Shown: in pieces, positions 8,958-25,899 of the stretch
Layout of the letters: each line of letters starts with the position of its first letter
How positions within the stretch are numbered: the stretch's first letter is position 1
Source of the DNA: a virus
Taxonomy: Duplodnaviria; Caudoviricetes
Reading direction: 5' to 3' (one strand)
IMG/VR virus record: IMGVR_UViG_3300025372_000014
Span: 1 to 64,000 of that record
Length of the DNA: 64,000 bases
Notes under the pieces: model-generated
What the model was told of the DNA's origin: nothing
Seen by the model: the letters and a program-made list of their open reading frames with translations, nothing else
Databases searched by the model: none
Position numbers and translations under genes: made by a program

Positions 8958-9006
8958 GGTGTATTGTGGTTAAGGGTGAGTCTTGATAATAATTAAAATT
9001 GACCTG

Positions 9007-9579: not shown

Positions 9580-9693
9580 TCCCCTATACTATGCCTTCTT
9601 GCCTATAGGTACAAGCACATTTTTACAATTTGGTAAGTCGCGCATCCTCAAGCACTTACGTCGCCGGGCCCCGCCGGGCTGTCAAGGGCAAAG

Positions 9694-9767
9694 TGGAGCG
9701 CCGTACTGGAGTCGAACCAGTCTAACAGGTTTTGCAGACCCGTGCCTAACCGCTTGGCTAACGACGC
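9694..9767 (-). tRNA. tRNA-Cys (GCA)
   Basis: Cloverleaf; anticodon loop CTGCAAA; CCA encoded. Confidence 0.92.
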
Positions 9768-9771
9768 ATTG

Positions 9772-9843
9772 TGGAACCCTTGGGACTCGAACCCAAAACC
9801 AATACCTTAAAAGGGTACTGCTCTACCATTGAGCTAGGATTCC
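9772..9843 (-). tRNA. tRNA-Lys (UUU)
   Basis: Cloverleaf; loop CTTTTAA. Confidence 0.9.
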
Positions 9844-9848
9844 AAGAG

Positions 9849-9924
9849 TGGCGCATCGGGCAGGGATCGAACCTGCGACCAAGAGTTTAGAAAACTCCTG
9901 CTCTATCCACTGAGCTACCGACGC
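9849..9924 (-). tRNA. tRNA-Arg (UCU)
   Basis: Cloverleaf; loop TTTCTAA; CCA encoded. Confidence 0.92.
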
Positions 9925-9928
9925 ATAG

Positions 9929-10001
9929 TGCCCCCGGAGGGATTTGAACCCCCAACCAATCAGTTATGAGCCGACTGCTCTGACCATTGAGCTACAAGGG
10001 C
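9929..10001 (-). tRNA. tRNA with CAU anticodon, probably Ile2 (lysidine type), alternatively Met
   Basis: Cloverleaf; loop CTCATAA; TTCAA T loop and overall layout resemble ileX-type tRNAs; lacks the initiator GGG/CCC anticodon stem. Confidence 0.8.
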
Positions 10002-10006
10002 GAAAT

Positions 10007-10082
10007 TGGTAGTGATGGTGGGATTCGAACCCACACTACAGGCATTTTAAGTGCCTTGACTCTGCCGTTGGTCTACATCACC
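10007..10082 (-). tRNA. tRNA-Leu (UAA) with short variable loop
   Basis: Anticodon arm AGGCA-CTTAAAA-TGCCT; 76 nt; ACCA end. Confidence 0.85.
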
Positions 10083-10092
10083 ATATTCAAAA

Positions 10093-10560
10093 TTATTTCT
10101 TTTTATTTTTACCTCGGTAAGTAGACGTTTGAGCATGGCAGTTTGGGCATAGTAAGGTTAGATTTTCTAGTCTATTGTCATTGTTGATTCCATTGATATG
10201 TTCTAATTCTAAAGGTATTTGTTGCCCCTGCCAAGTTGTATTTTGGCATTTGTGACACTTTTTATCAATGAAACCATATTGAAGAATTCTTCTTTTTAGG
10301 CTGTAGGTAGAAAGATTATGTTTTCCGTTTGCAACAAAAACTTCTTCATTTTTATACCTTTTCGTCCAATCGTGAGTCTTTCCTTTTAAATGTGCTTTAC
10401 CAGTAAAATGAGATGAATCTATATTTAATCTTTTAATATTAAAATGAACTATCTTATAGTTTCCTCCAGCTGGCTTAAGGTTTAATTTTTTAAGTACCTG
10501 CGCTATAGAAAAAGACGATTTAACTGCTTCTATAAACTCTTGGTCAGTATAGGTAGACAT
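10093..10560 (-). CDS. HNH endonuclease (tRNA-flanking)
   Basis: CHKC...LELEHINGINNDNRLENLTLLCPNCHAQT. Confidence 0.92.
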   Translation of the reverse strand: MSTYTDQEFIEAVKSSFSIAQVLKKLNLKPAGGNYKIVHFNIKRLNIDSSHFTGKAHLKGKTHDWTKRYKNEEVFVANGKHNLSTYSLKRRILQYGFIDKKCHKCQNTTWQGQQIPLELEHINGINNDNRLENLTLLCPNCHAQTSTYRGKNKKK

Positions 10561-10595
10561 ATAAGTATATTACACTAATAAGTCTACCCTAAACA

Positions 10596-10787
10596 CTACT
10601 TGTCCTTCTTGACAAACTCTTTCTTTGATGCCTTTGGAACGCAGTCCAGAACCAACTGCTTGTTGTACAACTGCTCTGCTATCATTGCCTTCCACTCCTC
10701 GTCGGTCACCCCCTTGGGACGCTTTGCCCTGAACTTGGGCATTGAGTTTCGGGTTTTAGTGATAGATGGGTTTGGCCAGATGTGCAT
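10596..10787 (-). CDS. small basic hypothetical protein
   Basis: ORF; start may be 10742. Confidence 0.55.
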   Translation of the reverse strand: MHIWPNPSITKTRNSMPKFRAKRPKGVTDEEWKAMIAEQLYNKQLVLDCVPKASKKEFVKKDK

Positions 10788-10839
10788 ATTTTTAATTAAT
10801 TTTTTGGACGAATGGTTAATTCAAGTGTAATATCATTAT

Positions 10840-11337
10840 ATGAAGATTTGCGCTAACTGTCAAAGGAGTTTTTCATCTTGTTGTAAAATAGATGGAGTAA
10901 AAAAGAATTTGGGTGCAAGAAAGTTTTGTTTAGAATGCTCACCTTGGGGGCAGCACAATACACGAAGCATAGGTAAAAGAAAAAACTGCGTAATCTGTTC
11001 AAAAAAATTAGAAGGCAATCAAACTATTTATTGTTCTAGATCATGTACCATGAAAAAAGCCGGTAGATGGTATAAACAACAAAAAGATCGTGCTATACAG
11101 AGAAAGAAAGATCTCGTTAATCAGTTGGGTGGAAAATGTAGCAAATGTGATTACAATAAAAATTTGGCGGCATTAGATTTTCATCATTTAGACCCATCTA
11201 AAAAGGAGACGCCAATGAATCTAAGCTTTTTATTAAAGATGAATTGGGAAAAATGTCTCAAGGAAGTATCTAAATGTATTTTGCTTTGTGCTAATTGTCA
11301 TCGAGAACATCATAATCCGCAATATGAAAATTGGTAG
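10840..11337 (+). CDS. HNH endonuclease with N-terminal zinc fingers
   Basis: Several CxxC; LGGKCSKC..ALDFHH..KCILLCANCHREHH. Confidence 0.9.
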   Translation: MKICANCQRSFSSCCKIDGVKKNLGARKFCLECSPWGQHNTRSIGKRKNCVICSKKLEGNQTIYCSRSCTMKKAGRWYKQQKDRAIQRKKDLVNQLGGKCSKCDYNKNLAALDFHHLDPSKKETPMNLSFLLKMNWEKCLKEVSKCILLCANCHREHHNPQYENW

Positions 11338-11424
11338 TCCTAGAAGGATTCGAACCTTCACCACGCAGGCGTCTCCCCGCTTACACTGTATAAGAGTGCC
11401 GTTCTGCCGTTAAACTATAGGACT
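11332..11424 (-). tRNA. tRNA-Ile (UAU) with ~23-nt variable arm
   Basis: AGTCCTA/TAGGACT-ACCA; anticodon arm GCACT-CTTATAC-AGTGT; GAAGG-TTCGAAT-CCTTC. Confidence 0.82.
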
Positions 11425-11526
11425 ATATTCGTTTATTATATAGTAGTTTTGGGCTATAGTCTAGTTTAAACTTAAAGTTTTGTATTAATCATTACTAATT
11501 GAATAAAAATCCATAGCCTCAGTATT

Positions 11527-11727
11527 CTAGTACGAATCTTCGACATCTTCTTGACAGAGATGACAGCGGAAGATTGAATTGAGCGGATTCGTACGGTCTT
11601 CTTTAATTATAAAAAGATCTAAACTTCCGTCAAGTACTTGCTCGCCACAGTATGTAGTGTCGCAGTCTCTGCAGTAGAAACGCATGTCTTCAGTGACGCC
11701 TTTAGGTGATAGTATAGCAGCGCTCAT
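11527..11727 (-). CDS. small zinc-finger protein
   Basis: CRDC...CHLC. Confidence 0.6.
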   Translation of the reverse strand: MSAAILSPKGVTEDMRFYCRDCDTTYCGEQVLDGSLDLFIIKEDRTNPLNSIFRCHLCQEDVEDSY

Positions 11728-11939
11728 TGTAATTCGTGTATGTTTGTTTCTTCTATGGTTTCTTTGATTCGGTAGTATTCACTGATATGTGGAACATCTT
11801 TATAGTTCAGATGAAATTCGTCTTGTTTGTATAGTTCACGGGCCCTATCTTCAGCATCCTGTCTATTGCTATACTGACAAGAGTACCGGTCTGACCACTT
11901 GCGTCGATTGTAAACTTCTATAGTAAAGTATCTAGTCAT
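11724..11939 (-). CDS. hypothetical protein
   Basis: ORF overlapping the next gene by 4 nt. Confidence 0.6.
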   Translation of the reverse strand: MTRYFTIEVYNRRKWSDRYSCQYSNRQDAEDRARELYKQDEFHLNYKDVPHISEYYRIKETIEETNIHELQ

Positions 11940-11940
11940 A

Positions 11941-12135
11941 TTATTTCCAAGTGAAGACTGACATGGTTGGTCTATTGGTATTAGGAATCATATAGCTTGC
12001 ATACCCTCTCTTAATCGCTTCCTCTTGCAGGGGAGTAACATTGAAGTATTGCATTGAGCATAGTGCAATAAATCCTCCAATAAGCAAACCAATAAAGGTT
12101 GCTCCAACCATGTCGGTGTCGTCGTATGGTCTCAT
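11941..12135 (-). CDS. small membrane protein
   Basis: One hydrophobic segment; start moved to ATG 12135. Confidence 0.6.
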   Translation of the reverse strand: MRPYDDTDMVGATFIGLLIGGFIALCSMQYFNVTPLQEEAIKRGYASYMIPNTNRPTMSVFTWK

Positions 12136-12136
12136 A

Positions 12137-12439
12137 TTAAGAAACGATTCCGGTAGTTGTACCATCTGGATTGTGCGCGATAATCAAGCTATTAGCAAAC
12201 CCACGCATAATGCATCGCGGTTGTCGCTTTTGCTCATGACTCTCTACATCAAGGCCAATTGTTTTGATTTTATTTACAATGCGGCACGAACCTTCCCAGT
12301 GGATGGTTATGACATTCCTGCCCTGCTTGTGGGCTAACGGCTTATTGTAGTGGTAAAAGAAACGTTTGGGCTTAGGAGTTTTAATTCCATACTGCCATTC
12401 TTTAATAGCCTGTTCTTTAGAGATAGTGGGAGTTTTCAT
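12137..12439 (-). CDS. conserved phage hypothetical protein
   Basis: RFFYHYNKP..ITIHW...QPR.IMRG; TTGACA-17-TATAGT-7-ATG fixes the start at 12439. Confidence 0.7.
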   Translation of the reverse strand: MKTPTISKEQAIKEWQYGIKTPKPKRFFYHYNKPLAHKQGRNVITIHWEGSCRIVNKIKTIGLDVESHEQKRQPRCIMRGFANSLIIAHNPDGTTTGIVS

Positions 12440-12631
12440 GACCCTTACTATATGACTAGTTGGCCAGTGTGTCAAAGGAATTCTACAATTTGTTCATGTA
12501 AACGAAAGGCGACTTTCTATACATGTCAATGATCATATACAAAGAATCTTTATTTGTGTAAGCTTTTGATTATTAGAGATTTACGGCGCCGGGCTCCGCC
12601 GGGCGATATAACCTATTGATACCGAGGGGTT

Positions 12632-12705
12632 TCGGAGTGACAGGATTCGAACCTGCGACTTCTTGCTCCCAAAGCAAGCGCACTACCAAGCTGTGCTACA
12701 CTCCG
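12632..12705 (-). tRNA. tRNA-Pro (UGG)
   Basis: CGGAGTG acceptor; loop TTTGGGA. Confidence 0.92.
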
Positions 12706-12769
12706 TTAAAACCTTTACACGGAAATGCCGCCCTCGATACCCCTATCGAGGACGGCTATCCCCTATCCC

Positions 12770-13627
12770 TTATTTTCTCCGTGCGACAAACCTTCCCTTA
12801 TTGTCCCTGACATTGTGATAATGGTCGCCATTAGGCTTGACACCATAGTCCTCGTAGTCGTTGTAGTCGTCCTCCTCATTCTCGTCCTCATCCTCATCAT
12901 AGCCATCGTAGTAGCTATCGGGAAGCGGAGCGTCGAATGTACCGACAACCTCGTACCGAGAAGTACGCATCTTCTGGAAGTCGCAATCGTGAGGAACGCT
13001 GACCACATCAGCAGGATCAACCTTGACGATCACGACCCGACGATCACCACTACCAAAATTGGTAGCATACTCAAGCGAACCGACATGGAAGCCATAACTG
13101 CAACCCATGTTAGCATCGTCGCAAACCGAGTTGCGAGGCATTGATAGAACCTCACCAACCTTATTGCTGAACTTGCCAGAGTAGTGATCCATCCAGTCAG
13201 AACGGACGCTCTTATAGCCGAGGAAACAACCATCTGGCGTGATGGGCATATTTCCATGCTCAAGGAACGAGTAGAGTTCCGTAACACTACGCCGAGATGG
13301 ATTCTGCATCAGTCTGGTAAGAAACTTAACCAGAGGAGTAGGCGAGATTCCCTCCTTGATAAAAGCCAAAATCTTTTCCACGATGGTTCCATGCACCACT
13401 TCACCATTGAAGTAGACATGACCATTAACAACTTCGACACTACCCTCCGACCAATCGGAGACTACACTTGCCGTGTCGATGAGATCAAGGAGTTCCTGTT
13501 CGGTAACTCCCTGCTTGACTGCTTCGATAACACGACCCCAATTCTCATGCGAACTCTGTATCGTGTACGGAGTGCCGTTGAGGATTGCGGTAAGCGAGTT
13601 ATCAGTTAGGATGTATGGGATGTTCAT
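12770..13627 (-). CDS. rIIB: RIIB-like protein
   Basis: NPS..SVTELYSFL..PITPDGCFLGYK..VLSMPRNSVCDD..GCSYGFHVGS.EYA..VKVDPADVVSVP.D..KMR; downstream of rIIA. Confidence 0.9.
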   Translation of the reverse strand: MNIPYILTDNSLTAILNGTPYTIQSSHENWGRVIEAVKQGVTEQELLDLIDTASVVSDWSEGSVEVVNGHVYFNGEVVHGTIVEKILAFIKEGISPTPLVKFLTRLMQNPSRRSVTELYSFLEHGNMPITPDGCFLGYKSVRSDWMDHYSGKFSNKVGEVLSMPRNSVCDDANMGCSYGFHVGSLEYATNFGSGDRRVVIVKVDPADVVSVPHDCDFQKMRTSRYEVVGTFDAPLPDSYYDGYDEDEDENEEDDYNDYEDYGVKPNGDHYHNVRDNKGRFVARRK

Positions 13628-13820
13628 AACTCCCTCATCATCTACTTTTTTGCATAGGGTGACAAGATATTTTTACAAGAAAAATACGAATAGTCATAAG
13701 TCATTCGCTATCAACAAGTTACGGCACCGGGCCCCGCCCGGCGATGTTAGTAATATTAAATGAGTTGGGGATGGAGCCACACCACATAGCTCCACCCCCG
13801 TTCCCTCACCACAACAATCT

Positions 13821-16049
13821 TTAAGCGTTGAAGTAGCTTGCTATGACCTTGAAGAACTGGTCACTACCACCCCAACGGAAGTTTCTCTCTTCGATATAAG
13901 GAAGCAGAGGAAACCTAGCCTCAAACGCTTTGACACGACCAGCAATATCATTAGCAATCTTGGTAGCGTTATCGTTCTTCTTAACATTCTTGCCTTGGTC
14001 AAGACGATCAATCTTATCCATCATGGTAAGAGCAACCTGCTCCTTGGCTTTAGAGTTGTTATCGTTATTACGAGAGTTGATGCAAGCAAACAAGTCTTGT
14101 AGTGTCTTGCGATCATCGTCACTCTTGATGAGAGACAAGATCAAGTCTTGATGCTTTCTGTCTGTCATACGATAGAACGCAGAACCATTAAGCATCATGC
14201 AACCCAAACGATAGGCAAGCAACTTGTCGATGTCGATTGCGTTAGCAGAGATGTAGTTATCAAACTCTTCACGCATCTTATCCTCAACGCTAACCCATCC
14301 GCTACCAATCTTATTCTTGAGTTGACCACCTGTGAACCCAACAATAGTAGCAGGGTTAATCGTCTTGAATGGGGCAACTAATTCCTTGAGAGTGCTATTA
14401 CCGATTCTTTCACCATTAAGAACTGCTTGATAGTTATTGATCTGGATATAGATACCCGAACCAGTCTTTTGATCGACCGCACAATCCTTCCAAGAGCTAC
14501 GATCCCTCCAAGAGTTAATGCTAGGGTCGAGCATTAAAGCACCAGTACGCTTTGCCTTGGTAGTAGTGAACGATGCGGTATTGGTAGGCAGGGTAATCGT
14601 AGATGCAAACATGAAGTCCTCATCAGCAAACCCATTAGCCTTCTTGAGATCAGCAATCTCTGTAGCATATTGAGCATACTCCGTAGGCTTGAGAACCTTT
14701 GTGACTTCAACAGCACCCTGCTTCTCTACCTTCTGCATGGTCAACAGATAGACGCTCTCCTTATTAGATGCTTGGGAGGCAAGGTAACGACCATACCTAG
14801 CACCAGAGTTGTAATGCCCAAGGTCATTAAAAACTAATTTAATGTCATGCCTAGCTTGGAACTCGTTCATGTTGGTAGTCTGGATATTACCATTCCAGTT
14901 CTGACGATACCGCATCATGTGGAAGCGTAGCGTCTTGGTAGCGTCACGCTTTGTGATGTCAACATTATCAGAGGTGATAACCTTGCCGTTAAAGGTGATC
15001 TTTTTAACGATGTTACGGATGTGATAGAAACCGCTAACCATATTGTCCAACTCGGACATGAACTTTTTAGCAGAGTATTCGCTCTTGGCAGAGGCATTGA
15101 TCTGTTTCTGAATGTCATCCACCAGCACCTTGATGATCTCTCCTGCCTTCGTCTTGATATTGCCAATAGTCCTGTCGGTGTATTGCAAACCCTCACGACT
15201 TGCCGCAACATCCAAGTCACCGATACCAAAATCGACGACGATTGAACTATTGAACAAGTAACTGATCTGTGTGTCGAGATCATTACCAGCAACAAACTTT
15301 AATGCACTTCTGTCGATAGGGTATGCGATGTTACCCATGACTGCCATCGGGCGATTGTCCTCTAGGTTTTCATAAAAAGCCCAACCCCTGCCAGTAGAGA
15401 TAGGCTTGGCAAAAACCTTATCATACTCTGCCTTGTCCATGCCGATAATTTCGGGACGAACCTTAAAGAATCGGAGGTAACGCTTAACAGCCTTGGTGAA
15501 GTAGTTGGAGTCCTCGCCCTTAACTGGAATGACGATCTCTACACCATTCTCTTCCGTAGTGTCCTTGGTAGATAGCAGGGCAATCTGACCGATACCGCTA
15601 GGGTCGATGAAGGCATTATAGGAACGAACTTTGCCTTCGGTAAAGCTATTGATAACAAAGTTGTCACCATAAGCAAAAGCACTCTTTGAGCCTAGACCCA
15701 ACTGACCGATAAAAGCGTTGCTCTGACGCTTCGTGCTTTCTCCATAGAAGCAGTAGATGTCTTGAATGTCCTGCTCGGAAAGTCCACGACCAAAATCACG
15801 GATCTTGAAAACCTTTGACAAGGGACTAGGCATCGTGATCTTGATAGCAGTATTAGGCTTGCCAGCTTCGACATTAGCATCGTAGGCATTGGCAGAGTAT
15901 TCACGCACGACAGCACCGATCTTGTCGGTGTAAAGCTGATTGCGTAGAACATTGAAGATATGGGCGAGTCCAGTATCTTTGATGCCGAAACTGACGGCAG
16001 ACTTAATTCCCTTGGATTCTAGCGAGTTATATGTAGTGTTTTGGATCAT
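13821..16049 (-). CDS. rIIA: RIIA-like protein (GHKL ATPase N-terminal domain)
   Basis: LY..K..AVVREYSANAYDA, IRDFGRGL, YGESTK, IGQLGLGSKSAFAY; start set by the TTGTCA-17-TATTAT promoter. Confidence 0.9.
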   Translation of the reverse strand: MIQNTTYNSLESKGIKSAVSFGIKDTGLAHIFNVLRNQLYTDKIGAVVREYSANAYDANVEAGKPNTAIKITMPSPLSKVFKIRDFGRGLSEQDIQDIYCFYGESTKRQSNAFIGQLGLGSKSAFAYGDNFVINSFTEGKVRSYNAFIDPSGIGQIALLSTKDTTEENGVEIVIPVKGEDSNYFTKAVKRYLRFFKVRPEIIGMDKAEYDKVFAKPISTGRGWAFYENLEDNRPMAVMGNIAYPIDRSALKFVAGNDLDTQISYLFNSSIVVDFGIGDLDVAASREGLQYTDRTIGNIKTKAGEIIKVLVDDIQKQINASAKSEYSAKKFMSELDNMVSGFYHIRNIVKKITFNGKVITSDNVDITKRDATKTLRFHMMRYRQNWNGNIQTTNMNEFQARHDIKLVFNDLGHYNSGARYGRYLASQASNKESVYLLTMQKVEKQGAVEVTKVLKPTEYAQYATEIADLKKANGFADEDFMFASTITLPTNTASFTTTKAKRTGALMLDPSINSWRDRSSWKDCAVDQKTGSGIYIQINNYQAVLNGERIGNSTLKELVAPFKTINPATIVGFTGGQLKNKIGSGWVSVEDKMREEFDNYISANAIDIDKLLAYRLGCMMLNGSAFYRMTDRKHQDLILSLIKSDDDRKTLQDLFACINSRNNDNNSKAKEQVALTMMDKIDRLDQGKNVKKNDNATKIANDIAGRVKAFEARFPLLPYIEERNFRWGGSDQFFKVIASYFNA

Positions 16050-16199
16050 GGTGTTAGTAGTGTTGTGTGAGCCTTCATAATAGACTTTCTTGTATGGCAT
16101 GACAAGAATTATTTTCACAATTTTACAGGTATCTCTAAGTTGTTGAAAAGGAATGACTTACAGCGCCGGGCCCCGCCGGGCTAAAGGAGGGCCCATAAA

Positions 16200-16232
16200 C
16201 CAAAAAGAGCCCCCCAGTAAAGGAGGGCCCTT
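16200..16232 (-). terminator. probable intrinsic terminator
   Basis: GC-rich hairpin followed by a U-tract on the minus strand, after the peptide ORF. Confidence 0.55.
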
Positions 16233-16254
16233 ATCCCAGCCTCAAAGGAGGCCC

Positions 16255-16398
16255 CTAGTACCGATGCTTGTGAGTAGAAGCTCCAACTGAATGGTGTGAG
16301 CGACCGCTAGAAGAACTATGCTTCCACCCTGCGGCTTGCGCTCCAGAAACGCTCACGAAAAAGATTGCGGTAATGACGGCTAGGATTGTTTTATTCAT
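16255..16398 (-). CDS. secreted His/Ser/Gly-rich peptide (WKHS type), absent from the ORF track
   Basis: MNKTILAVITAIFFVSVSGAQA|AGWKHSSSSGRSHHSVGASTHKHRY; paralog at 27636-27791. Confidence 0.75.
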   Translation of the reverse strand: MNKTILAVITAIFFVSVSGAQAAGWKHSSSSGRSHHSVGASTHKHRY

Positions 16399-16564
16399 TG
16401 GTTGTGTATAGGTTGTATTTGTAGTTTTCTATTTTTCCATTGTTAAACATACGATAGTGCCAGTTACCATGGGTAACATCCATCATGTGTCCGAACAACA
16501 GAGAGTTCTTTGGATTATATTCATATCCAAATAGATTAAGGAGGAATGTGATGGGGTCTTTCAT
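16391..16564 (-). CDS. 57-aa hypothetical protein, absent from the ORF track
   Basis: MKDPITFLLNLFGY...YTTNE; stop overlaps the start of the peptide ORF. Confidence 0.6.
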   Translation of the reverse strand: MKDPITFLLNLFGYEYNPKNSLLFGHMMDVTHGNWHYRMFNNGKIENYKYNLYTTNE

Positions 16565-16589
16565 ATTTATAGTTTGTGGGTTTTTGTTT

Positions 16590-16849
16590 GGGACTGCAAG
16601 AAAATTGTCCCTGCCACTCCGTCGAGTGCTACCCCCAGATGAATCTCTTCACGCTGGGGTTGGTGACTGCACGATACGATTGCAGAACACACAGGGGGTT
16701 TTGCTCTCTGCTTTTAGCCCAGTTAATTATGCTGGACGCCGACTTGAGACGGTTAACTTCAAACGATCATTTGTCGCCTGCAAATTAGTAGCATTACAAA
16801 TTATTAAAGAGCTTCCTAGGTTGTGTCTTTAGAACTGCTAGGCCAGTCC
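16590..16849 (-). ncRNA. putative structured RNA or long structured leader, family unknown
   Basis: TTGACA-17-TACTAT promoter immediately upstream; 5' GGACUG pairs with 3' CAGUCC; at least five internal hairpins. Confidence 0.6.
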
Positions 16850-16868
16850 TTGTATTGTTATAGTAAAT

Positions 16869-17123
16869 CTATTTGCCCTCTGTGTCAACAGGTGTTTCAA
16901 AAAAACTAGAGTCCAATCCAAAATAGGAAAATAGCTCCCATAACTTCTCCTGTGCTATCTCCAAGCCTTTAACCGCATCAAAATCTTCAGTAGTTTTTAT
17001 TTCATCTTCCAAATAGTTTTGCATATTAATACAGACGGCGCGCCACTTCTGTCCATTTAAACAATCGGTCATTGGGACTTCCTCTTTGGGTAGAGAATAT
17101 TTAATATTAACTTCCATAGCCAT
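16869..17123 (-). CDS. conserved small phage protein
   Basis: Resembles 808-1032 (xLPxEE...NG.KW). Confidence 0.65.
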   Translation of the reverse strand: MAMEVNIKYSLPKEEVPMTDCLNGQKWRAVCINMQNYLEDEIKTTEDFDAVKGLEIAQEKLWELFSYFGLDSSFFETPVDTEGK

Positions 17124-17508
17124 AATAGGGATTTACGAATGCCAAATCCAATAAATAGGTTGGAGATTTACTAGCCAAATTCCCCTTAATAGCTGTATTA
17201 GCTAGCCCGATTTCCCCTAAATAGGGATTTACGCCCGATATCCCCCTAAATAGCTTTTTGGGAATACCCCTGTCCCCTTATATCAGAAACTAATATCATT
17301 TCTGTAGTACTAACTGGATGGATTGTTTGTATTTCCACTATATATTAGTATATCACTATTTGGACAGCTTGTCAAGCCATGTATCTATCTGGTAATCAAC
17401 GACTTACGAGACCGGGCCCCGCCCGGTGGGCGTTGTCTTACAAGTGATCAGTTAGGTAAGCGCATATAATTAAACCTACGGTAATTAGAGGGACTAGGTA
17501 TCGCATTT

Positions 17509-17718
17509 TCATTTTGCGTCCTCCGATCCGCCAAACATCTGATCCCACTCCTCGCCCGTGATGCCCGTCTTGTAGAACTCACGCTCGTCGGCGTTGAGGT
17601 TAGGGAAGGCGTTCTGTAGAAGCGCGCCGTTGGCGTAGGCTTCGACTTGAGCCTCGGTGATGTCGAGGTCGAGGGTGCGGGTGATCTGGGTGAAGGGAGA
17701 GGTACGGGTTACTTTCAT
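17509..17718 (-). CDS. conserved small phage protein at the repeat-polarity switch
   Basis: LLQNAFPNLNADEREF.KTGIT.EEW; leaderless promoter. Confidence 0.8.
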   Translation of the reverse strand: MKVTRTSPFTQITRTLDLDITEAQVEAYANGALLQNAFPNLNADEREFYKTGITGEEWDQMFGGSEDAK

Positions 17719-17890
17719 ATGATCATCATACTATAATTTGTCCCTAGCACAACAAAAAAAATGCATGAATAAAAATTAATTTATTAAAAAAAGCTTGACA
17801 TACCACTTGTCTTACTGTATACTACCGGGCGGGGCCCGGCGCTGTAAACCCTTGAGAATCAGTAACTTACACAAGCCAGAATCGTGTCAA

Positions 17891-17926
17891 GCAAAAACCG
17901 CCCCCTATGTTAGTAGAGGGCGGCTG
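17891..17926 (-). terminator. intrinsic terminator
   Basis: GCCGCCCTCTA..TAGGGGGCGG followed by TTTTT, downstream of the DUF932 gene. Confidence 0.7.
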
Positions 17927-17941
17927 ATGTTAGGCTAGATG

Positions 17942-18730
17942 TTAGGCCTCGACTAGAACCGCATCTTGAGCCTCCACGACTTGCTGGGCCGCGATCCCTG
18001 CGAGAGGGTCGAGCAGTGCGTGTAGAGCGTCCGACCTGCGAGGCAGTGCCATCGCATTACCGCGCAGGACATTGGTGAAGGCGTTGTGCAAGCCCCAGAG
18101 GTTGCGCTCGGAACCCCAGACATCGTGTTCGGGTTCGTGCCACTGGGCGACCACATCCGCAAGCGCAGTCTTGGAAACCGCGCCGCAACGGAAGGCCTTC
18201 ACGATGATGTCGTGGGCATCCTTGTCGGCAATCGCGCAGGACTGATAAGCCTCGACGCGCTTTGCATGGTTGCCCCATGCGCTAGTGAGCTTGCCGAATG
18301 CGCCAGCGAGGAGCATCGGAAGATCGCGCAGGATGAACTTTGTGTGACGACGAGCGATCTTGATCTCGTTGTGGAACGCGAGGTTATCGCAGACGAAAGG
18401 CGCGGAGCCAGCGTTGATGCCAGCAGGGAATGACTTGTCGTGCGAGTTACGCAAACCGATGACAGTCCCGACAGTCTCGGCAAGCGAGAAGTTAGGGATT
18501 CCAGCGACTTGGAAAAGTCCAAAGTAGCGTTGACCATCACGAGCGAGAGCGTGACGCTCCTGCACGATTTCAAGGCCAGCGGTTGCGACAGTCTCGCGCA
18601 AGCCTTCAATGATGCGCGAGTGAGGGATCGGATGCCACGACTCCGTGGCGTTAGGGGTGATGGAGTTGGCGACTTGCTCGGAAGAAACTTCGTGGCCGCC
18701 GCAGTGTAGTGTGAGGTTCAGTGTTTTCAT
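17942..18730 (-). CDS. DUF932/DUF945-family protein
   Basis: WHPIPH, GLRNSHDKS, FVCDNL, RRHT, LWGLHNAFT motifs. Confidence 0.8.
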   Translation of the reverse strand: MKTLNLTLHCGGHEVSSEQVANSITPNATESWHPIPHSRIIEGLRETVATAGLEIVQERHALARDGQRYFGLFQVAGIPNFSLAETVGTVIGLRNSHDKSFPAGINAGSAPFVCDNLAFHNEIKIARRHTKFILRDLPMLLAGAFGKLTSAWGNHAKRVEAYQSCAIADKDAHDIIVKAFRCGAVSKTALADVVAQWHEPEHDVWGSERNLWGLHNAFTNVLRGNAMALPRRSDALHALLDPLAGIAAQQVVEAQDAVLVEA

Positions 18731-19135
18731 TGAGCCTTCATCATCCATCTTTTTGGCGTTCGGTACAATACCTTTTTTACAATTTTGTGCGATTTTTTTG
18801 TATAAAGCGCGCTTGACATTCGTTCGTTTATATAAAGCAAAATGGCTTTTACTTTAGACAACCCACAGAGCCAGTATTTATGCGGCTCCGCGGCCTATTT
18901 GATCTGTAGCCGGTGGCCCACCCGTAGAGCCAGTATCTATGCGCCTGTGCAGTTGTCTTACAAGCCGCCGGGCGGGGCCGGGCGCCGTAACCCGTTGATA
19001 TTCAGCAAGTTACAGCGATTGGTGGTTGGGATGTTATATTAGCGCATTTTGTTTTCCTTTTTTATTTGTTTTTATTATAGTGAATTGCGATAGCCACTAA
19101 CAAGCATATTAGTAGAAAAGTCATGGCTCGTCACG

Positions 19136-19825
19136 TTAAACGGTTTCCGGTTGTAGGACAAAGCCTGACTCGTCCTTTTTCCCCTTGCCCTTGGCGACAA
19201 GTCCGACGATCACGCCCCTTGCATCTTTGAAGCGAAGGTCGGTGTCATCACCATTGACCACGGGCTTTCCGAGATAGGTTTCGGGAAGTTTACCAGCGAA
19301 CACGGCGGCGATGTTACCGCCTAGCTTTGCGATGATCTCAACCACGCTCTGATTGTTTTCTTTGCGTGAGAAAGTCAAGTGGTAGTTGGCAGGCAACTCG
19401 CCACGAAGGAAAGCAAGCATCCGCTTGGGATTGGGCGTGTAGTCGTAGAACATCACTTCAGGGAAGGTGTTCATCTCAATCAGATTTTCCCATGGAAGAT
19501 CAGAGAGAACATTCAACCGCACAGCAAGTTTCATGTTTTTCTTTTTTGCGTTCTTAATCGCAAGAGAGATTTCCTTTTTTAATTGTGCAAGGAAAGCGTC
19601 CTTCTGTTCAATGAAGTAACGAGACTTTTTTAGTCGTGCCTCTTGAACATTAGAAAACACGCCCATGCCCGAAGTGTTGAGGCAGGCGGCGGCACAGCCT
19701 TCCGAAGCGTGAGAGCAAAAGTTTTTGCCGGAGAGATTATAGGGAAGGAGAGACAAGCCAAGCGTGAGCCAGCCGAGTTTTTCGCCTTTGCGGATTTTAG
19801 TGTTGTTGGGTGATAGGAGTTTCAT
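19136..19825 (-). CDS. gp88-like phage protein (Cys cluster, radical-SAM-like)
   Basis: CSHASEGCAAACL, VRLNVLSD, FYDYT, NYHLTFS, GDDTDLRF.D, VGLVAKG. Confidence 0.8.
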   Translation of the reverse strand: MKLLSPNNTKIRKGEKLGWLTLGLSLLPYNLSGKNFCSHASEGCAAACLNTSGMGVFSNVQEARLKKSRYFIEQKDAFLAQLKKEISLAIKNAKKKNMKLAVRLNVLSDLPWENLIEMNTFPEVMFYDYTPNPKRMLAFLRGELPANYHLTFSRKENNQSVVEIIAKLGGNIAAVFAGKLPETYLGKPVVNGDDTDLRFKDARGVIVGLVAKGKGKKDESGFVLQPETV

Positions 19826-19866
19826 GGTTCTATGATTTTGATTATTTTTTGCGATAGTGTCAACGA

Positions 19867-20373
19867 TCAATTTTCTGGATCCCAGTCATTTGATCCTTCA
19901 CGAATTAGATGTCCTTCTGGCACACGATCCGTTGCCCATCCCATAAAGTTTTCCCTAGTGATTCCGTCGAGCGTATCCTTTGCCGCTTGCATGGCATCAG
20001 CTTTGAACTTTTCAGCCTTGCCCTTGTATTGCTTGCTCACAGGAGAATCTTGCCAGAGACGGATATTCTCCCATGTAAGACCACGCACGATGTCCTCCGA
20101 TGTCGTGAGAAAGTAGGCGAAGCTCTCGCCGATGTAGTGAAGGAAACCATCTCCGAGCGTTTGTCCGTTGCTTACCCATCCTCCCTCGTCGTCAATGTTG
20201 CTTGTGACATTTGCACCAGCGATACCAAGGTTGAAGTAGCGATTGAAAGAGCGTTCGATCTGTTGGCGAGTGCCAGAAAGACCGAAAGCCAATCCGTTGC
20301 CATAGGATGAAATCGCTTCAGAGGCGAAGGCGTTGAGGGTTGCGTTAGGGGTTTGGGTGTTGTTGTTTGTCAT
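19867..20373 (-). CDS. hypothetical protein
   Basis: 168-aa ORF; TTGCAA-17-TAGTTT-6-ATG. Confidence 0.75.
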   Translation of the reverse strand: MTNNNTQTPNATLNAFASEAISSYGNGLAFGLSGTRQQIERSFNRYFNLGIAGANVTSNIDDEGGWVSNGQTLGDGFLHYIGESFAYFLTTSEDIVRGLTWENIRLWQDSPVSKQYKGKAEKFKADAMQAAKDTLDGITRENFMGWATDRVPEGHLIREGSNDWDPEN

Positions 20374-20605
20374 GGTTCAAAACTATCCGATGCCGTCTCG
20401 AATTGCAAAATCTTTTTTCATTTTGGCGAAACTTTTTTTGTGCGAAACTTGTTGACAGCCGTAGAGCTAGTGTTTATGCGGCTCCGTGGACTAGTTCGTC
20501 TACGGGTGGGTGGGTATCCGTACAGCCCCATTCTATGCGGCTCCGCGAGGGGTGGGCAACCCGCCGGGCGGGGCCCGGTCACGTAAGTCATTGATTTGTA
20601 GTAAC

Positions 20606-21037
20606 TTAGAATGATTGCGTCTCTCTAAGGTATGTTAGGCGATTATTGGATATTAAGTAACTCTCTTCTAGCCTCTGAAGTGGACGATTTAATCCAGTAT
20701 CATAAATTGATCCGTTTATGATAGCAAAAGCGTGACGATTAGTTGCAACATAGTAGCGACCAGTTGGGTTCTCTTTAATGAACCTCTGAATGGTGATACT
20801 TTTGTAACGCTTTTTTTTGTATGTTATGCCGTACTCCTTTTTGGCATATTTAAGTAATTTTTCTGGATCAAAACCATGACCATTTTTTCTGCCAGCTTCA
20901 ACGCCTATCTTGTGAGCATACTCGTAAGGTATGCCAGCACTTGCCGCCAATGCACGAATCGTGCAGTCTCTAAACTCTCTGATTCCAGACCTTGCTCTTC
21001 CAGCGTCAGAGCAGATTGTTCGTGATTTTAAATCCAT
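20606..21037 (-). CDS. conserved phage protein (DCTIRALA...HAFAI..G..YD)
   Basis: Cys/His/Asp motif pattern, possibly a papain-like fold. Confidence 0.7.
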   Translation of the reverse strand: MDLKSRTICSDAGRARSGIREFRDCTIRALAASAGIPYEYAHKIGVEAGRKNGHGFDPEKLLKYAKKEYGITYKKKRYKSITIQRFIKENPTGRYYVATNRHAFAIINGSIYDTGLNRPLQRLEESYLISNNRLTYLRETQSF

Positions 21038-21146
21038 TTTTATTTGAGAAGAAAGTTGGAGCCCATGCGAGTGTTTTACGACATCCTTTTAACTCGCACA
21101 CCCAATGAAGTCGAGGTGCTAGCGGGACTTTGCTAGATGATTGCAA

Positions 21147-21419
21147 CTAGGCGATCAACTCAAAGCGGTTGATGCGATCCAAGCGGAACCTGCGGATGTC
21201 ATCCACAGCAGGGACATAGCAAGTGATTCCCTCACCAGCAGGATTGTTCACTCCACGATCCTCCTTGTAGAAGAACTTCCCGAAAGGACGGGAAACTTGA
21301 TACTCCTTCGGCTCAAAACCATTCGTCGCCGCCGAGTAGACGATGCGATAGGTTCTGCACAAGCCGAGCTTGTAAGCGAGTTTCGTGAAGAGGAGGTTGA
21401 GACGGATTGCGGTTTTCAT
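21147..21419 (-). CDS. stand-alone WYL-like domain protein
   Basis: N-terminal RIVY and C-terminal IRRFRLDRI. Confidence 0.6.
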   Translation of the reverse strand: MKTAIRLNLLFTKLAYKLGLCRTYRIVYSAATNGFEPKEYQVSRPFGKFFYKEDRGVNNPAGEGITCYVPAVDDIRRFRLDRINRFELIA

Positions 21420-21481
21420 GGTAGTGTTGTTTTTGTTTTGTTGTTTCTGTATTTTGATTATTAAAAATTTTGGGTGATGTG

Positions 21482-21691
21482 TCAAGAGACAATCTTGATA
21501 TTTTTTGCGGCTCTGTATGCCGAGATCATCTCACCGATGCGGTTACGACTGGACTTGGTGAAGTAACTATTAACTCCCCAGTTGGCTTTGATGTTCTTGT
21601 GAGCTTTGACTTCGCTCTGAATTGCAATCGCCAGATAGGCACGGATGTTGCAGACATTGGTGAAGTTGAGTGTGGTGTTCTTATTTTTCAT
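21482..21691 (-). CDS. hypothetical protein
   Basis: Leaderless promoter; resembles 23859-24050. Confidence 0.65.
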   Translation of the reverse strand: MKNKNTTLNFTNVCNIRAYLAIAIQSEVKAHKNIKANWGVNSYFTKSSRNRIGEMISAYRAAKNIKIVS

Positions 21692-21927
21692 ACTTCTAGT
21701 ATAAGCAGACTTCGCAGAAAAAACGAGAAAAATCGTATGGCTAGATGAAATTATTTTTATTGAAATCGCTTGACAGCCCTAGCCCTAGTATTTATGCCGC
21801 TCCAAGCTATATTCGTCTACAGGCAGGGGGTCGGCTCTAGAGCCAGTGTTCATGCGCCTCTACAGATGATCACCGGCTGACCGGGCGGGACCCGGCGCCG
21901 TAACCCCTTGGTTATCAGCGCTTTACA

Positions 21928-22194
21928 TTAATCGGTCATTTTAGTGACGAAAACAGGAGTATATTCACCCATGTAAGCACCAGCGATGTTAAATTCAAAG
22001 AATTCCCATGCTTCATCTCTATCCATTCCTTCGGACATTAGCTTGGTGATAATTTTATTGGTATCGTAAGCAATCACAGATGGGCGACCAGCTTGCGAGG
22101 TAAAACCAATGATGCAGTCATCATACCCATCGGCCTTCAGAACATTTTCGTCAAGGCATTCTAGGAGATCGTCAAGATCAATTTTAGAACTCAT
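21928..22194 (-). CDS. conserved acidic phage protein
   Basis: ADGYDDCIIG..AYD..EA.EFFEFNI.GAY.GE.TP. Confidence 0.75.
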   Translation of the reverse strand: MSSKIDLDDLLECLDENVLKADGYDDCIIGFTSQAGRPSVIAYDTNKIITKLMSEGMDRDEAWEFFEFNIAGAYMGEYTPVFVTKMTD

Positions 22195-23521
22195 AGCCGC
22201 CTCCTATGTCGTTCCTGTCTTCAACAGAAGAATCTAGATATTGGTCTGGCTCTACTTCGTCCATGCTTCTAGGCGTGTGACCTAGTTCATGCTCCTCCAT
22301 GTAGTATTCTGGCTCGTTGCTGTTATCGGGGTCGTTGGGGTCTTGCATAATCTGATTAAAATGTTTTTTGGTTATGGTGTCAAGCGTTGATCGTGGCGCA
22401 GAACTCTCTGAATCCACGCACGATGTGTGAGATATCGCCGGTAGTGCTACAGAGTGCATCGGCAATGCTTATCGCACAATCACGCTCAAGCTGAAGCTGA
22501 AGCAATTTCTTCATCACTTCTCGCTTAGTAACTCCGGCAGTAGACTCTTCAAGAGCATCCAGCATTAGATCAAAGTCCATTTTAGTAAAATTCTTTTTGA
22601 TCATTTTATTTAATTCCTAACTGACTGAGTTTCTTTTTGAATACCGCATCTTGGATTTTCTGCCAGCCTTCCTCTTGGAATGGCGTTTGCGCGAGGGACT
22701 CATCATTCCAATGAAACGATGGGATGCCCCAAGAATTAGCCTCATAGGTTGCGGCACTATGCTTAACGGCAAGGTGTCGCCAAACTAAAGAGGTGGCGAG
22801 TGAGTCGATCACGCAGAAGGTGATGGCGACGATGGACATGACTAGGATGTTGCGCGTGGTGTTGTTCATTATTGTGTTTATTTAGGGTTAGTTTAACTGA
22901 TAGCCGTAGTTGATACCAAGAGAATCTTCTCTCTCAAGATCACCGATCTGCTCCTCCCATCCAGCGATGTCGTCCTGCAAGGTCTCTAGTGACTGCTGAC
23001 GAATGATGTAGAGAGGATGTTCTGGAAAAAGCATCGACATCTGCTTTTCGATTGCCGCGATCTCTTTTTCCGCTTGTGCAATTTTTTTGTTCAGTTTGGG
23101 GATGAGGTAGTGCATAGAGTAATTAAAAAGAATTTTTATTGTTCAGTCAAGCTTTCCGAGATTTTTCCATTCTCTTCTTGGCTTTAAGCTCCTCAAAAGA
23201 ACTTACGCCATTTTTTTCATATAGCTCCTCAAGACCTTCTTTCGCACCTTCACGAATTGCGGTGATAATCTCAAAAAGAAAACCGGCAACCTTGAAAAGA
23301 ATCCAAAGGGCGACAGAGACGAATACGATGGTTTCAGCGATGTGTAGTATGGTGTTCATAAAGTAATTAAAATGTTTTTTTATTGTTCAGTCAACCCAAA
23401 TGTTCGGATTGCCATGCTCTTTGACGATAGCCTCCAACTCATCAAGCCAAGCCTCGTACTCGGAGGCGTAAGCGGCGAGATCGTCAACTGCGGTTTCTTT
23501 AGGGTCGAGTAGTAGTTCCAT
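22184..23521 (-). other. cassette of six small hypothetical ORFs (22184-22348, 22380-22604, 22606-22869, 22888-23115, 23147-23359, 23387-23521)
   Basis: Tightly packed co-oriented ORFs, two with TM segments; duplicated TTGACT-17-TTTAAT promoters. Confidence 0.65.
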
Positions 23522-23858
23522 GATTAGAGAATACCATAAAAAGAGTTTTGTGCAATAATTATTTATAAAAAAATTTCGACCGAATGGGAGAAAACGATTG
23601 ACAGCCTGCAGGCCCAGTGTTTATGCGGCTCCGCGGCCTACTTCATCTACAGCCGGTAGGCTAGCCTCAGAGCCAGTATCTGTGCGGCTCCGCGAGGGGT
23701 GACCGACCCGCCGGGCGGGACCGGGCGCTGTAAGTCGTTGATTTTGAGTTACTTACGAAAAAGGGATATGATGAGCAATGTTAGTGGATAAAAGTAGGTA
23801 AAAGCCGCCAAGATTACGCCAGAGATTGCTAGGATGTTATCAATCATATTATTAGATG

Positions 23859-24896
23859 TTAAAGCGCACGAATTTCGCGCAGTGCGGAGATATTTTCCTT
23901 GATTTCGTTAGTCCAGAAGTCCACGGAGCTAACATGGCGAATCTGTTGCGCATTTCGACGACTTTGCCACGATTTAGCGATGAGAGATCGGATGGCAACA
24001 CGGGCAGTGAATTTGGTTGAAGTGGAGAGAGTTTTTTGTGTGTTTTTCATATTGTTAGTTATTTGGTTAGTTGTGATGTTATTATGGGCGAGATTGGATG
24101 CCTTCTCTGACGGCTTTTATAGCCTTGCCAGTAGCCTCGTATTCGTCCTTGATGGGAGAGTCACGATAGACCGCAGATAACATGAGCAGATAATGCTCCA
24201 TGATTTTAGCGGCTTCAATGATCTGTTTGTCGGAGTAAGGAGAGATGTTTCTCATGATAGTTATAGGGTTAGGGTTAGAGGGATTGAGCAAAGCGAACCT
24301 TTGCCATGTTGTAGTACTTAACGCCAGACCATTTCGGGTCTTTGTACTGCTCACGGAAGCTGTCCCTAGTTTCTTGGTAGCGTTCGCTCATCTCACGAAG
24401 AGTGAACCAGCGACCAGCGGTGAAAGTGGGATCGGTCATCCCATAGTTTGTACCGAGGAAGGTGTGAATCTTGATCTCGTACTCGCCATCATTCCAGCGA
24501 GTGTCGGAGATCAGTTCTTGAACTCCTGCGCCTCCCCAGTTGATGATGAGTGCCATCCCGATGTTCGGGGTGAAGCTAGGAGTGAAAGTGACAGGCGAAG
24601 TGGTGATTGAGTTGTTCATATTTTTATTTCCTTTATTTTGTATGCTACTAGTGTATCAGAAACCTTTCCGAAAAGCAACGCTAGAGTTGTGGTTGAGTGT
24701 TGTTCGGGGCGACACATCCTGTCCCGATTTTGCGCTTCACCCAATGAGTGTTTGGGCAAGGCTTGCCGATGGTTGCGGAGCCTACTGGATACCACGCCCT
24801 TTCCCATCCGACGATTTGACCGACCAGATCGCCCTCTTGGACGATTTCGCCTGTGTTGAGTGTCCTGTAGTTGTTGAGGTTTTCTTTATCTTTCAT
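23859..24896 (-). other. cassette of small hypothetical ORFs (23859-24050, 24082-24255, 24275-24619, 24681-24896)
   Basis: Co-oriented ORFs between repeat copies 11 and 12. Confidence 0.6.
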
Positions 24897-25118
24897 GCTA
24901 TAAGCGTATCACAGGTCATGCAAAAATGCGACAAAAATCGTTCGGTTACCTACGGGTCATCACGACACATCCTGTCACCGCGTACCCAGAGTGTTAACAT
25001 TCATCTACAGCCCATGCCCTGCCTGTAGAGCTAGTGTTTATGCGGCTCCAGCGTTGTCTTACAACCCGCCGGGGGGAGCCGGGCGCTGTAAGCTGTTCTC
25101 TGTCAACAACTTATGCTT

Positions 25119-25502
25119 TTACTCTTTCACTGCTACTAACATCCCATGAATACCATTCCGATTTGCCTCTAGAATTGTGTCTACATTATCATCAATGTGT
25201 AGAACACTATTTAACATCTGTAAATGTGGAAGTTTTGCTTCACCTTTTGTCGCAATCATTCCAGTAATCGGAAGTTTATGATCCGCAACAAATTGCTGAA
25301 CCTCATGCATATGATCCCAGCTTCTGAAACTAACAATCCAGATATCATACCCATGCTTTGCCTTATCAAAGACAATTTCAAAGATTTCCTCTATAGGAGT
25401 TAACACTCCATTATCCAGATGCTCAATTGGATTTTCTGGATTCCAGACTCCATGAGTCTTTGCTAGTGTTTCGTCGAAGTCTACTGTGATTACTTTATTC
25501 AT
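25119..25502 (-). CDS. HAD-superfamily phosphatase-like protein
   Basis: Motif I VDFDETL, motif II IVS, motif IV HIDD. Confidence 0.75.
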   Translation of the reverse strand: MNKVITVDFDETLAKTHGVWNPENPIEHLDNGVLTPIEEIFEIVFDKAKHGYDIWIVSFRSWDHMHEVQQFVADHKLPITGMIATKGEAKLPHLQMLNSVLHIDDNVDTILEANRNGIHGMLVAVKE

Positions 25503-25899
25503 ATATTTTACTGGTTAAGATTGTCCTCTTTCAAATTCTTCTTTGCGATCTCTGCGGCGATCTTGTTCAGCCTCATCACCCTTTCCATGAGGGTTTCTGC
25601 TTTGATCGTTTGGTTGTTCTTATCTTTCATGGTTAAAGAATAGCATGGAGCCGCAAGAATTACAACAAAAAAATTCGCATGGGATAAACTTTTTTTTATA
25701 AAAAATGCTTGACAATGGCATTGTCTTACACTATACTACCGGGCGGCGCCCGGCCTTGTAAGTGGTTGATTACCAACCCTTTCCGTACTTCTGTCGTCTT
25801 TTGTACAATTTTTTGCTTGACACGGCGCGTTGGACAGGCGCATACGGCTGTCTTACCTTGATGTCTTTCAGTTGTATTACAAAGCGTTCGGTTTTCATA

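Follow-up and report, generated by a model that had tools for sequence, protein, structure and literature searches.

Two oppositely oriented runs of a GC-rich, IHF-consensus repeat in the early-gene block of an uncultured phage point to a candidate DNA-level boundary element

The closest known kind of element to the repeat analysed here is the promoter-early stem-loop (PeSL) cassette, which was described in the T4-type phages RB49, phi1, T4/PST and KVP40/nt-1 (PMC2839356, PMC4122927). The G-run-then-C-run stem-loops of the PeSLs have been reported as effective terminators, and the cassettes bound segments that were gained, lost or swapped among related phages, with one crossover mapped inside the GC element and no dedicated recombinase known (PMC2839356, PMC4122927). 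The present repeat is a 46-bp unit composed of a GC-rich core and a pseudo-palindrome that carries a consensus site of the integration host factor (IHF). Fifteen copies of the unit occur in the first 64,000 nt (hereafter the window) of the virus record IMGVR_UViG_3300025372_000014 (Duplodnaviria; Caudoviricetes). It has in common with the PeSLs that short composite intergenic repeats stand by early or non-essential genes and combine a GC-rich G-run/C-run part, an A/T-rich stretch and a strong sigma70-type promoter. Moreover, both kinds of element are found at the borders of indels or replacements between relatives, which in the present case are junctions holding a core and an indel in the relative G007 bounded by the innermost cores. 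The phage unit differs from the PeSLs in that it adds the IHF-consensus pseudo-palindrome at a fixed 4-bp spacing, in that its GC part consists of paired self-palindromic heptamers without covariation, in that two opposite conserved orientation classes exist, one of them directly downstream of an antisense promoter, and in that the seams show inversions and not indels alone. The window phage carries rIIA, rIIB and a clamp loader; it differs from the PeSL hosts in having no close relative in the phage collection.

Three other groups of elements were compared. In the BIME-1/RIP/RIB elements of Escherichia coli, which are extragenic and close transcription units, REP palindromic units flank an IHF site. 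The phage repeat likewise is extragenic and joins a GC-rich palindromic unit to an IHF-consensus site; however, its sequence is unrelated, it has one GC unit and usually one IHF site, and it is promoter-linked and, judged by an exact-pattern search of prokaryote genomes, private to phages. Like the sites of the Ter/Tus, KOPS and Chi systems, the unit is a short asymmetric motif whose copies are opposed across one point in the window genome, but the orientation relative to this point is not conserved in relatives, the copies are few, local and intergenic, and there is no genome-scale skew signature. The lambda att sites and the Hin/Gin segments share with the unit short inverted arms, an asymmetric spacer, an adjacent IHF-consensus site and a small gene-bearing segment between inverted copies; they differ from the phage repeat, for which no recombinase gene and no orientation polymorphism were found and which is present in 11-15 promoter-linked copies per genome.

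The first-expressed genes of large uncultured phages are arranged in many tiny units, and the separation and exchange of these units are poorly known. The present case is a clean example of a putative GC-clamp plus IHF-like element that is wired to promoters in two opposite ways and doubles as a rearrangement seam. With a probability of roughly 60%, the change of direction of the repeat marks the border between two runs of cassettes, named type L and type R, whose shared unit has a DNA-architectural function; on this reading the flip at 17.4-17.8 kb is itself without genome-scale meaning.

The 46-bp unit and its change of direction at 17.6 kb

The window is the first part of a single virus contig of 91,233 bp (CheckV completeness about 60%). 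The core was searched as CCGGGCGGGGCCSGG with up to two mismatches on both strands of the window and of the whole contig. The core, CCSGG-CGGGG-CCSGG, was found at 15 sites in the window, the same 15 were found genome-wide, and no match was expected by chance on the basis of 100 shuffled sequences. Six cores lie on the minus strand (range 8133-17426) and nine on the plus strand (range 17825-27454), the core at 25739 matching on the opposite strand as well. In its core orientation every copy consists of the core, 4 nt (mostly CGCY) and a 27-nt GTAAGTnnTTGAT...ACTTAC pseudo-palindrome. All copies are intergenic and located inside the minus-strand early block at 8-28 kb. Copies, promoters and neighbouring elements are arranged as follows:

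8102-8147, minus strand: copy 1 (core 8133-8147), convergent junction between plus-strand genes and a gene for 252 amino acids (aa)
9633-9678, minus strand: copy 2 (core 9664-9678), 15 nt past the 3' end of tRNA-Cys, at the border of the block inverted in the relative G003
12558-12622, minus strand: copy 3 (core 12589-12603), 28 nt past tRNA-Pro, with IHF-consensus sites on both sides, the inner one a half-site
13696-13741, minus strand: copy 4 (core 13727-13741), between rIIA and rIIB; a promoter-like TTGTCA begins 61 nt after the core
16135-16180, minus strand: copy 5 (core 16166-16180), after a terminator at 16232-16205 and before the rIIA promoter at 16105-16077
17347-17375, minus strand: promoter P_L, TTGACA, 17 nt and TATACT, with TG; its -35 begins 36 nt after the core of copy 6
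17381-17426, minus strand: copy 6 (core 17412-17426), innermost left copy
17509-17718, minus strand: central 69-aa gene, acidic product with a match to PHROG 20898
17735-17730, minus strand: -10 hexamer TATAGT of the 69-aa reading frame's own leftward promoter, assigned by eye
17795-17823, plus strand: promoter P_R, A/T-rich run, TTGACA, 17 nt and TATACT; antisense, with TTGTCTTAC in the spacer, ending 1 nt before the core of copy 7
17825-17870, plus strand: copy 7 (core 17825-17839), innermost right copy, short form
17896-17925, minus strand: intrinsic terminator of the DUF932 gene, distinct from the repeat, with compensatory changes in the relative G002
18823-19013, plus strand: copy 8 (core 18968-18982), long-form cassette with two AGAGCCAGTRTTTATGCGGCTCC copies 102 and 43 nt ahead of the core
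20419-20609, plus strand: copy 9 (core 20564-20578), long form; A/T-rich run and TTGACA at 20430-20455, predicted leaderless leftward promoter and ATG at 20373-20407
21736-21926, plus strand: copy 10 (core 21881-21895), long-form cassette
23566-23756, plus strand: copy 11 (core 23711-23725), long-form cassette
24924-25114, plus strand: copy 12 (core 25069-25083), long-form cassette with the most degenerate core
25709-25784, plus strand: copy 13 (core 25739-25753), short form; antisense promoter at 25709-25737, ending 1 nt before the core
26339-26529, plus strand: copy 14 (core 26484-26498), long-form cassette
27295-27485, plus strand: copy 15 (core 27440-27454), long-form cassette

A preliminary description of the window had reported that the repeat flips at about 17.6 kb, that the palindrome always faces away from this point, and that the genes on both sides are nevertheless on the minus strand. 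All three observations were reproduced: six minus-strand cores are followed by nine plus-strand cores, the IHF-consensus pseudo-palindrome lies outward of 17.6 kb at 4 bp from the core in 15 of 15 copies, and minus-strand genes flank the flip on the left (rIIB, 12770-13627; rIIA, 13821-16118) and on the right (DUF932 gene, 17942-18748; GP88 gene, 19136-19870). The midpoint, previously given as about 17625, follows from the innermost core pair. A perfectly sorted 6/9 split has a probability of about 30/32768 (~0.001) under independence; the orientations are not independent, as the right-arm copies all belong to a single cassette of 125-250 nt that is repeated. The innermost pair recurs in independent assemblies from five other samples, so the flip is not a misassembly. 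The 69-aa reading frame that had been placed between the innermost copies exists and is conserved in relatives. Regarding the divergent promoters placed there as well, the rightward P_R and the reading frame's own leftward promoter are located inside the segment, while the strong leftward P_L lies just outside copy 6.

The anatomy of the unit was analysed with 64-78 copies pooled from the window and five or six relatives. Together with its flanks the core comprises two self-palindromic GCCSGGC heptamers, spaced 10 bp centre to centre with GGG between them. The arm combinations CCGGG/CCCGG, CCCGG/CCCGG and CCGGG/CCGGG were counted 21, 20 and 19 times, respectively, and the remaining complementary combination once. 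The two S positions thus do not covary, and about two thirds of the cores carry a central C-C or G-G mismatch and are therefore unable to form a full stem. The spacer reads CGGGG in 52 of 64 copies. In the pseudo-palindrome only 4 of 13 positions pair reliably (TAA/TTA and one T/A), and the core-proximal half is conserved as sequence and equals the reverse complement of the IHF consensus WATCAANNNNTTR. This consensus is exact in 26 and has at most one mismatch in 45 of 64 copies, at a fixed spacing of 4-5 nt from the core. Relative to the GGG strand, the IHF-like site is confined to the 3' side in 65 of 78 copies and to the opposite side in 3; a further 6 copies, mostly at block junctions, have it on both sides. 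The spacer strand is coupled to the palindrome side in 71 of the 78. Spacer and IHF-like half are kept as sequence across genomes whose proteins are 50-90% identical.

These properties bear on an explanation at the RNA level, according to which the GC core and the palindrome would be terminating or stabilising hairpins, similar to the PeSLs, and the orientation would be a frozen accident of cassette copying without functional polarity. Besides the terminator activity reported for the G-run/C-run stem-loops of the PeSLs, it is favoured by a predicted fold of the module of about -16 kcal/mol, equal on both strands, by copies that directly follow tRNA genes without another terminator, and by the right-arm copies being clearly duplicates of one cassette. 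However, the palindrome by itself folds weakly (about -4.9 kcal/mol), the core is not followed by a T-run, and a terminator scan passed over the cores but detected separate canonical terminators ahead of some copies. The missing covariation, the central mismatches, the few reliably paired positions and the conservation of spacer and IHF-like half as sequence argue in the same direction, and the coupling of spacer strand and palindrome side would be needless for a symmetric hairpin. A function of the repeat at the RNA level is considered unlikely. The unit is instead read from its sequence pattern as a double-stranded DNA docking element with real polarity, and for its GC part a protein site or clamp is more probable than a terminator hairpin.

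Several candidate RNA features were discarded separately. RNAalifold detected no conserved structure in 18 long-form cassettes, and a stem CCGTAGA/TCTACGG noticed by eye in these cassettes failed across the aligned sequences. A wobble asymmetry (G-T 121 versus A-C 73) was rejected as a sign of a strand-specific RNA hairpin, as it is concentrated at three positions with a sequence-conserved 5' base and the stability is equal on both strands.

Orientation, GC skew and rearrangement seams in related genomes

A near-identity search of the phage collection with the repeat region yielded no close relative, the best cultured match to the rIIA protein in this collection was 31% identical, and a single-protein search of IMG/VR with rIIA gave no match. 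Relatives were retrieved by the DNA pattern of the repeat alone, which identified nine IMG/VR contigs. Seven of them carry 11-14 cores each, compared with 0-1 matches for a reversed control pattern; G001 and G005 are classed as complete. The window, G001, G002, G003, G005 and G007 were checked gene by gene and G004 by core orientation only.

The mirror pattern was found in three of eight genomes including the window. It is perfect only in the window and in G007 (split 5/9), and G002 has one exception in the left arm. Left of the centre the cores of G003 read +,+,+,-,-, and those of G001 and G005 read +,+,+,+,-, with the same core pattern in G004 as in G001. In G001, G003 and G005, rIIA and rIIB are on the other strand and their cores are flipped along with them. 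Most left-side copies of G001, G003, G004 and G005 consequently point in the same direction as the right arm, because the rIIA/rIIB block is inverted and its copies were carried along. A striking mirror symmetry in one genome can thus be the by-product of a block inversion. The local relations were kept: the right-arm copies are opposite to their minus-strand genes in all six genomes checked gene by gene, the innermost minus copy followed by P_L is always present in them, and the cores adjacent to the rII genes are co-oriented with these genes in both genome configurations. With respect to the check proposed earlier, on whether the flip and the central gene are conserved, the mirror arrangement is thus confined to the minority of genomes named above, and the central gene is present in five relatives and absent in G007.

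In the preliminary description the arrangement had been tentatively attributed, among other possibilities, to polar sites around a centre, comparable to Ter or KOPS sites relative to an origin. Such an explanation, in which the copies would be DNA-traffic signals (Ter, KOPS, Chi or R-loop primers) placed about an origin of replication or some comparable centre at 17.6 kb, could draw on the perfect 6/9 and 5/9 mirrors of the window and G007, on the strong divergent promoters at the centre, on the G-rich forward strand of the core, and on a small change of sign of the GC skew near the centre (size up to 0.1) in the window and in G003. It is largely refuted by the relatives and is extremely improbable. 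There is no mirror in G001, G003, G004 and G005 and one break in G002, and the central gene and P_R are absent in G007. Although the genome measures about 140-150 kb, the copies are limited to 20 kb, and all of them are intergenic beside promoters. The cumulative GC skew, which had been named as a check for an origin, rises almost steadily over the genome without a minimum at 17.6 kb, and local skews do not exceed 0.13 in size. Moreover, in the rII block the skew goes with the strand of the genes, whichever configuration the genome has.

A small anomaly is left over in the right arm, which is slightly G-rich on the plus strand despite its minus-strand genes; it is attributed to C-rich third codon positions together with the G-rich cassettes. 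At the C-rich third codon positions of the right-arm genes the coding-strand GC skew is -0.21. Priming by R-loops or G-quadruplexes at the G-rich cassettes was dropped as a candidate, as the variable segment is C-rich in several copies.

Comparison of gene order located the repeat at rearrangement seams. Between the window and G003, a 6.4-kb block (9688-16125, from the tRNAs to rIIA) is inverted and was moved across the block of the 252-aa and 190-aa genes. A core is present in every one of the three junction intervals of the window and in two of the three intervals of G003. One synteny block begins exactly at a core in both genomes; the block that the window shares with G003 and G001 starts exactly at the core of copy 1, next to which a second, unrelated palindrome (8152-8178) is located on the inner side. 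G002 shows another module order again. The centre is affected by a 400-bp indel: G007 lacks the central gene and P_R, i.e. the segment between the two innermost inverted cores, and retains a single core with the copy-6 palindrome and P_L on one side and the copy-7 palindrome and the DUF932 terminator on the other. The five relatives that possess the central gene carry it on the same strand relative to DUF932. Its product is acidic and matches PHROG 20898, a common small viral family of unknown function; there was no Pfam match and no hint of DNA binding.

Dedicated site-specific recombination at att-, hix- or attC-like sites, by which cassettes would be inverted or exchanged and the central gene would be invertible or excisable, would fit the inverted arms, the asymmetric spacer and the adjacent IHF-consensus site, which resemble lambda att, as well as the position of the inversion and translocation borders at cores and the presence or absence of the central 400 bp exactly between two cores. 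Nevertheless, this explanation is judged very unlikely. Searches of five genomes, of which two are complete, revealed neither a tyrosine recombinase gene (PF00589) nor a serine recombinase gene (PF00239), although both families were detected in control genomes, and the five relatives carrying the central segment all have it in one and the same orientation. Furthermore, a deletion between inverted sites is not the outcome of a site-specific recombinase; the indel is possible because the self-palindromic heptamers also match as short direct repeats, and this short direct homology of the arms accounts for it. The exact module pattern was not detected among about 185,000 prokaryote species, each represented by one genome, which also speaks against a dedicated recombination system; on the same absence a host-repeat origin of the module was rejected. 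The earlier proposal of inversion substrates is accordingly supported on an evolutionary scale, with borders of the inversion, the translocation and the 400-bp indel at cores, and hardly as a switch with its own recombinase and two orientations of the central segment.

Two cassette architectures and their interpretation

Type L cassettes form the left arm and, in every relative, are found beside the rII genes. On the sense strand they start with the end of a gene or tRNA, often together with a terminator belonging to it, and continue with the core, the IHF-like site, an A/T-rich stretch, a promoter and the next gene. Copies 4 and 5 come after terminator-like hairpins. The distance from the core to the start of the -35 element is 36-37 nt for P_L and 60-61 nt for the rIIB and rIIA promoters.

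Type R cassettes form the right arm and are copies of a 125-250-nt back-to-back promoter module, which has a fixed length. One end of the module takes in the first codons of the downstream minus-strand gene; at the other end are the core and palindrome, directly adjoining the upstream gene's stop codon. The promoter of the module is predicted to start the RNA on or close to the ATG; next come an A/T-rich run and a plus-strand TTGACA, and then a part specific to the short or the long form. In the short form (copies 7 and 13) this part is a canonical -10 ending 1 nt before the core, and in the long form (seven copies) it contains two 23-nt motifs at fixed distances of 102 and 43 nt ahead of the core. 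Among the near-consensus antisense promoters of six right arms, 10 of 10 have a forward core within 1-20 nt, while the sense promoters are followed by the next core hundreds of nucleotides on, past the gene or genes that they drive. Both hexamers of P_L are conserved throughout an alignment of the centre from four genomes; for P_L and P_R alike, the spacers drift but the -35 and the key -10 positions are retained, as is the distance of 1 nt between P_R and the core. The pattern of a strong sigma70-type promoter with an A/T-rich upstream region fits P_L and P_R as well as the promoter of copy 13 and those of the rII genes.

Additional repeated sequences were observed in and around the cassettes. 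The AGAGCCAGTRTTTATGCGGCTCC 23-nt motifs form a pair, 59 nt apart, in seven of the nine right-arm cassettes (18823-18967, 20419-20563 and five others) and in relatives; they may be binding sites of a phage factor or a non-canonical promoter. An 11-mer, TTGT(C/A)(T/A)(T/G)ACAA, occurs in either orientation at 17807-17815, 25721-25729, 18953-18963, 27424-27433 and 17435-17445; it is placed in the spacer of antisense promoters or 4-6 nt before a core, is also present beside copy 6, and has an operator-like look. One right-arm copy of G007 (reverse strand, about 17231) has the plus-strand TTGACA fused to the core, with the spacer and the -10 deleted, and its antisense promoter is expected to be lost. 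Furthermore, a gene-start module is repeated, in which TTGnAA (-35), 17 nt, a -10, 6 nt and the ATG follow each other and the first codons, M-K-D/N-K-N, lie within the repeat. Since the -10 is separated from the ATG by only 6 nt, the genes concerned are predicted to be leaderless. The modules are located at:

20358-20410, gene-start module
21676-21728, gene-start module
24881-24933, gene-start module
25615-25667, gene-start module
26297-26349, gene-start module
27245-27297, gene-start module
28405-28457, gene-start module

Sequences of the AAATTGTAAAAA type (9595-9634 and 18749-18788) are found after several left-arm palindromes (copies 2 and 5) and ahead of the genes for the 190-aa protein and DUF932, and may indicate a second class of promoters that is specific to the phage.

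According to the preferred reading, the 46-bp unit would be a protein-docking boundary element that acts at the DNA level in composite regulatory cassettes of the early-gene block. A host IHF-type protein would bend the DNA at the palindrome, as suggested by the consensus match, and the twin GC heptamers may serve as a clamp or as a docking site for a second factor. In type L cassettes the bend and clamp would help the downstream promoter. In type R cassettes a putative leaderless leftward promoter would drive the gene, and the rightward antisense promoter, or a promoter-like -35 and A/T element, would point into the core and IHF-like site; bend and clamp would there stop or limit the antisense transcript and thereby make the back-to-back module effectively one-directional. 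Because the same sequence of about 50 bp bounds every module, the relatives would have recombined at the modules, which is consistent with the inversions, the translocations and the central-gene indel. The statement of the preliminary description that transcription does not explain the flip was too strong, as every copy has a promoter next to it on the same strand, in a fixed relation.

In a narrower version of the reading, the core and the IHF-like site would constitute an orientation-dependent transcription barrier, in which the protein-held bend halts RNA polymerase arriving from the core side and not from the other side. With such a barrier, consecutive sense units of the left arm would be shielded from one another. 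In the right arm, the antisense member of each promoter pair would be capped within 1-20 nt and sense read-through allowed, so that strong two-way modules would become one-way. This version is regarded as doubtful; if it is true, the unit would be a compact portable insulator and a new phage use of a host DNA-bending protein.

Several points weigh against the boundary-element reading. The inversion of copies together with their genes is automatic in any inversion, so that it demonstrates that the global pattern is dispensable and not that the local relation is selected. At the convergent junction, the direction of the GGG/CCC spacer in the copy 3' of the 252-aa gene (copy 1) is shared by the window and G003 and reversed in G001, G002 and G005. 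An IHF-type binding protein is assumed from the consensus match, and no HU/IHF (DNABII) homologue was found among the five phage genomes searched. The long forms, i.e. seven of the nine right-arm copies, possess the plus-strand -35 and A/T run without a canonical -10 (TATGCG), and their firing is doubtful; their two conserved 23-nt motifs are not accounted for by the reading. The change of sign of the GC skew near the centre, small as it is, belongs here as well.

Genome context

The gene content of the window contig includes rIIA, rIIB, a clamp-loader-like ATPase, the large terminase and nine tRNAs, seven of which are located in the left arm. A search with Rfam over 6-30 kb detected tRNAs and nothing else. 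When the late-region proteins were compared with PHROG, one of nine matched, the large terminase alone. The minus-strand gene block, which extends from about 8.2 to 29.6 kb, has a higher G+C content than the remainder of the genome. At third codon positions the G+C fraction is about 0.48-0.53 in the early-block genes (8.2-28 kb) compared with 0.28 in seven large plus-strand (late) genes at 35-51 kb. Two adjacent early genes (8199-8957 and 9007-9579) both have a weak match to the Pfam family Ogg-HhH (helix-hairpin-helix, 8-oxoguanine DNA glycosylase). The gene of tRNA-Ile with the anticodon TAT (11332-11424) is 93 nt in length, which is long for its tRNA type, and may contain an insertion or an intron.

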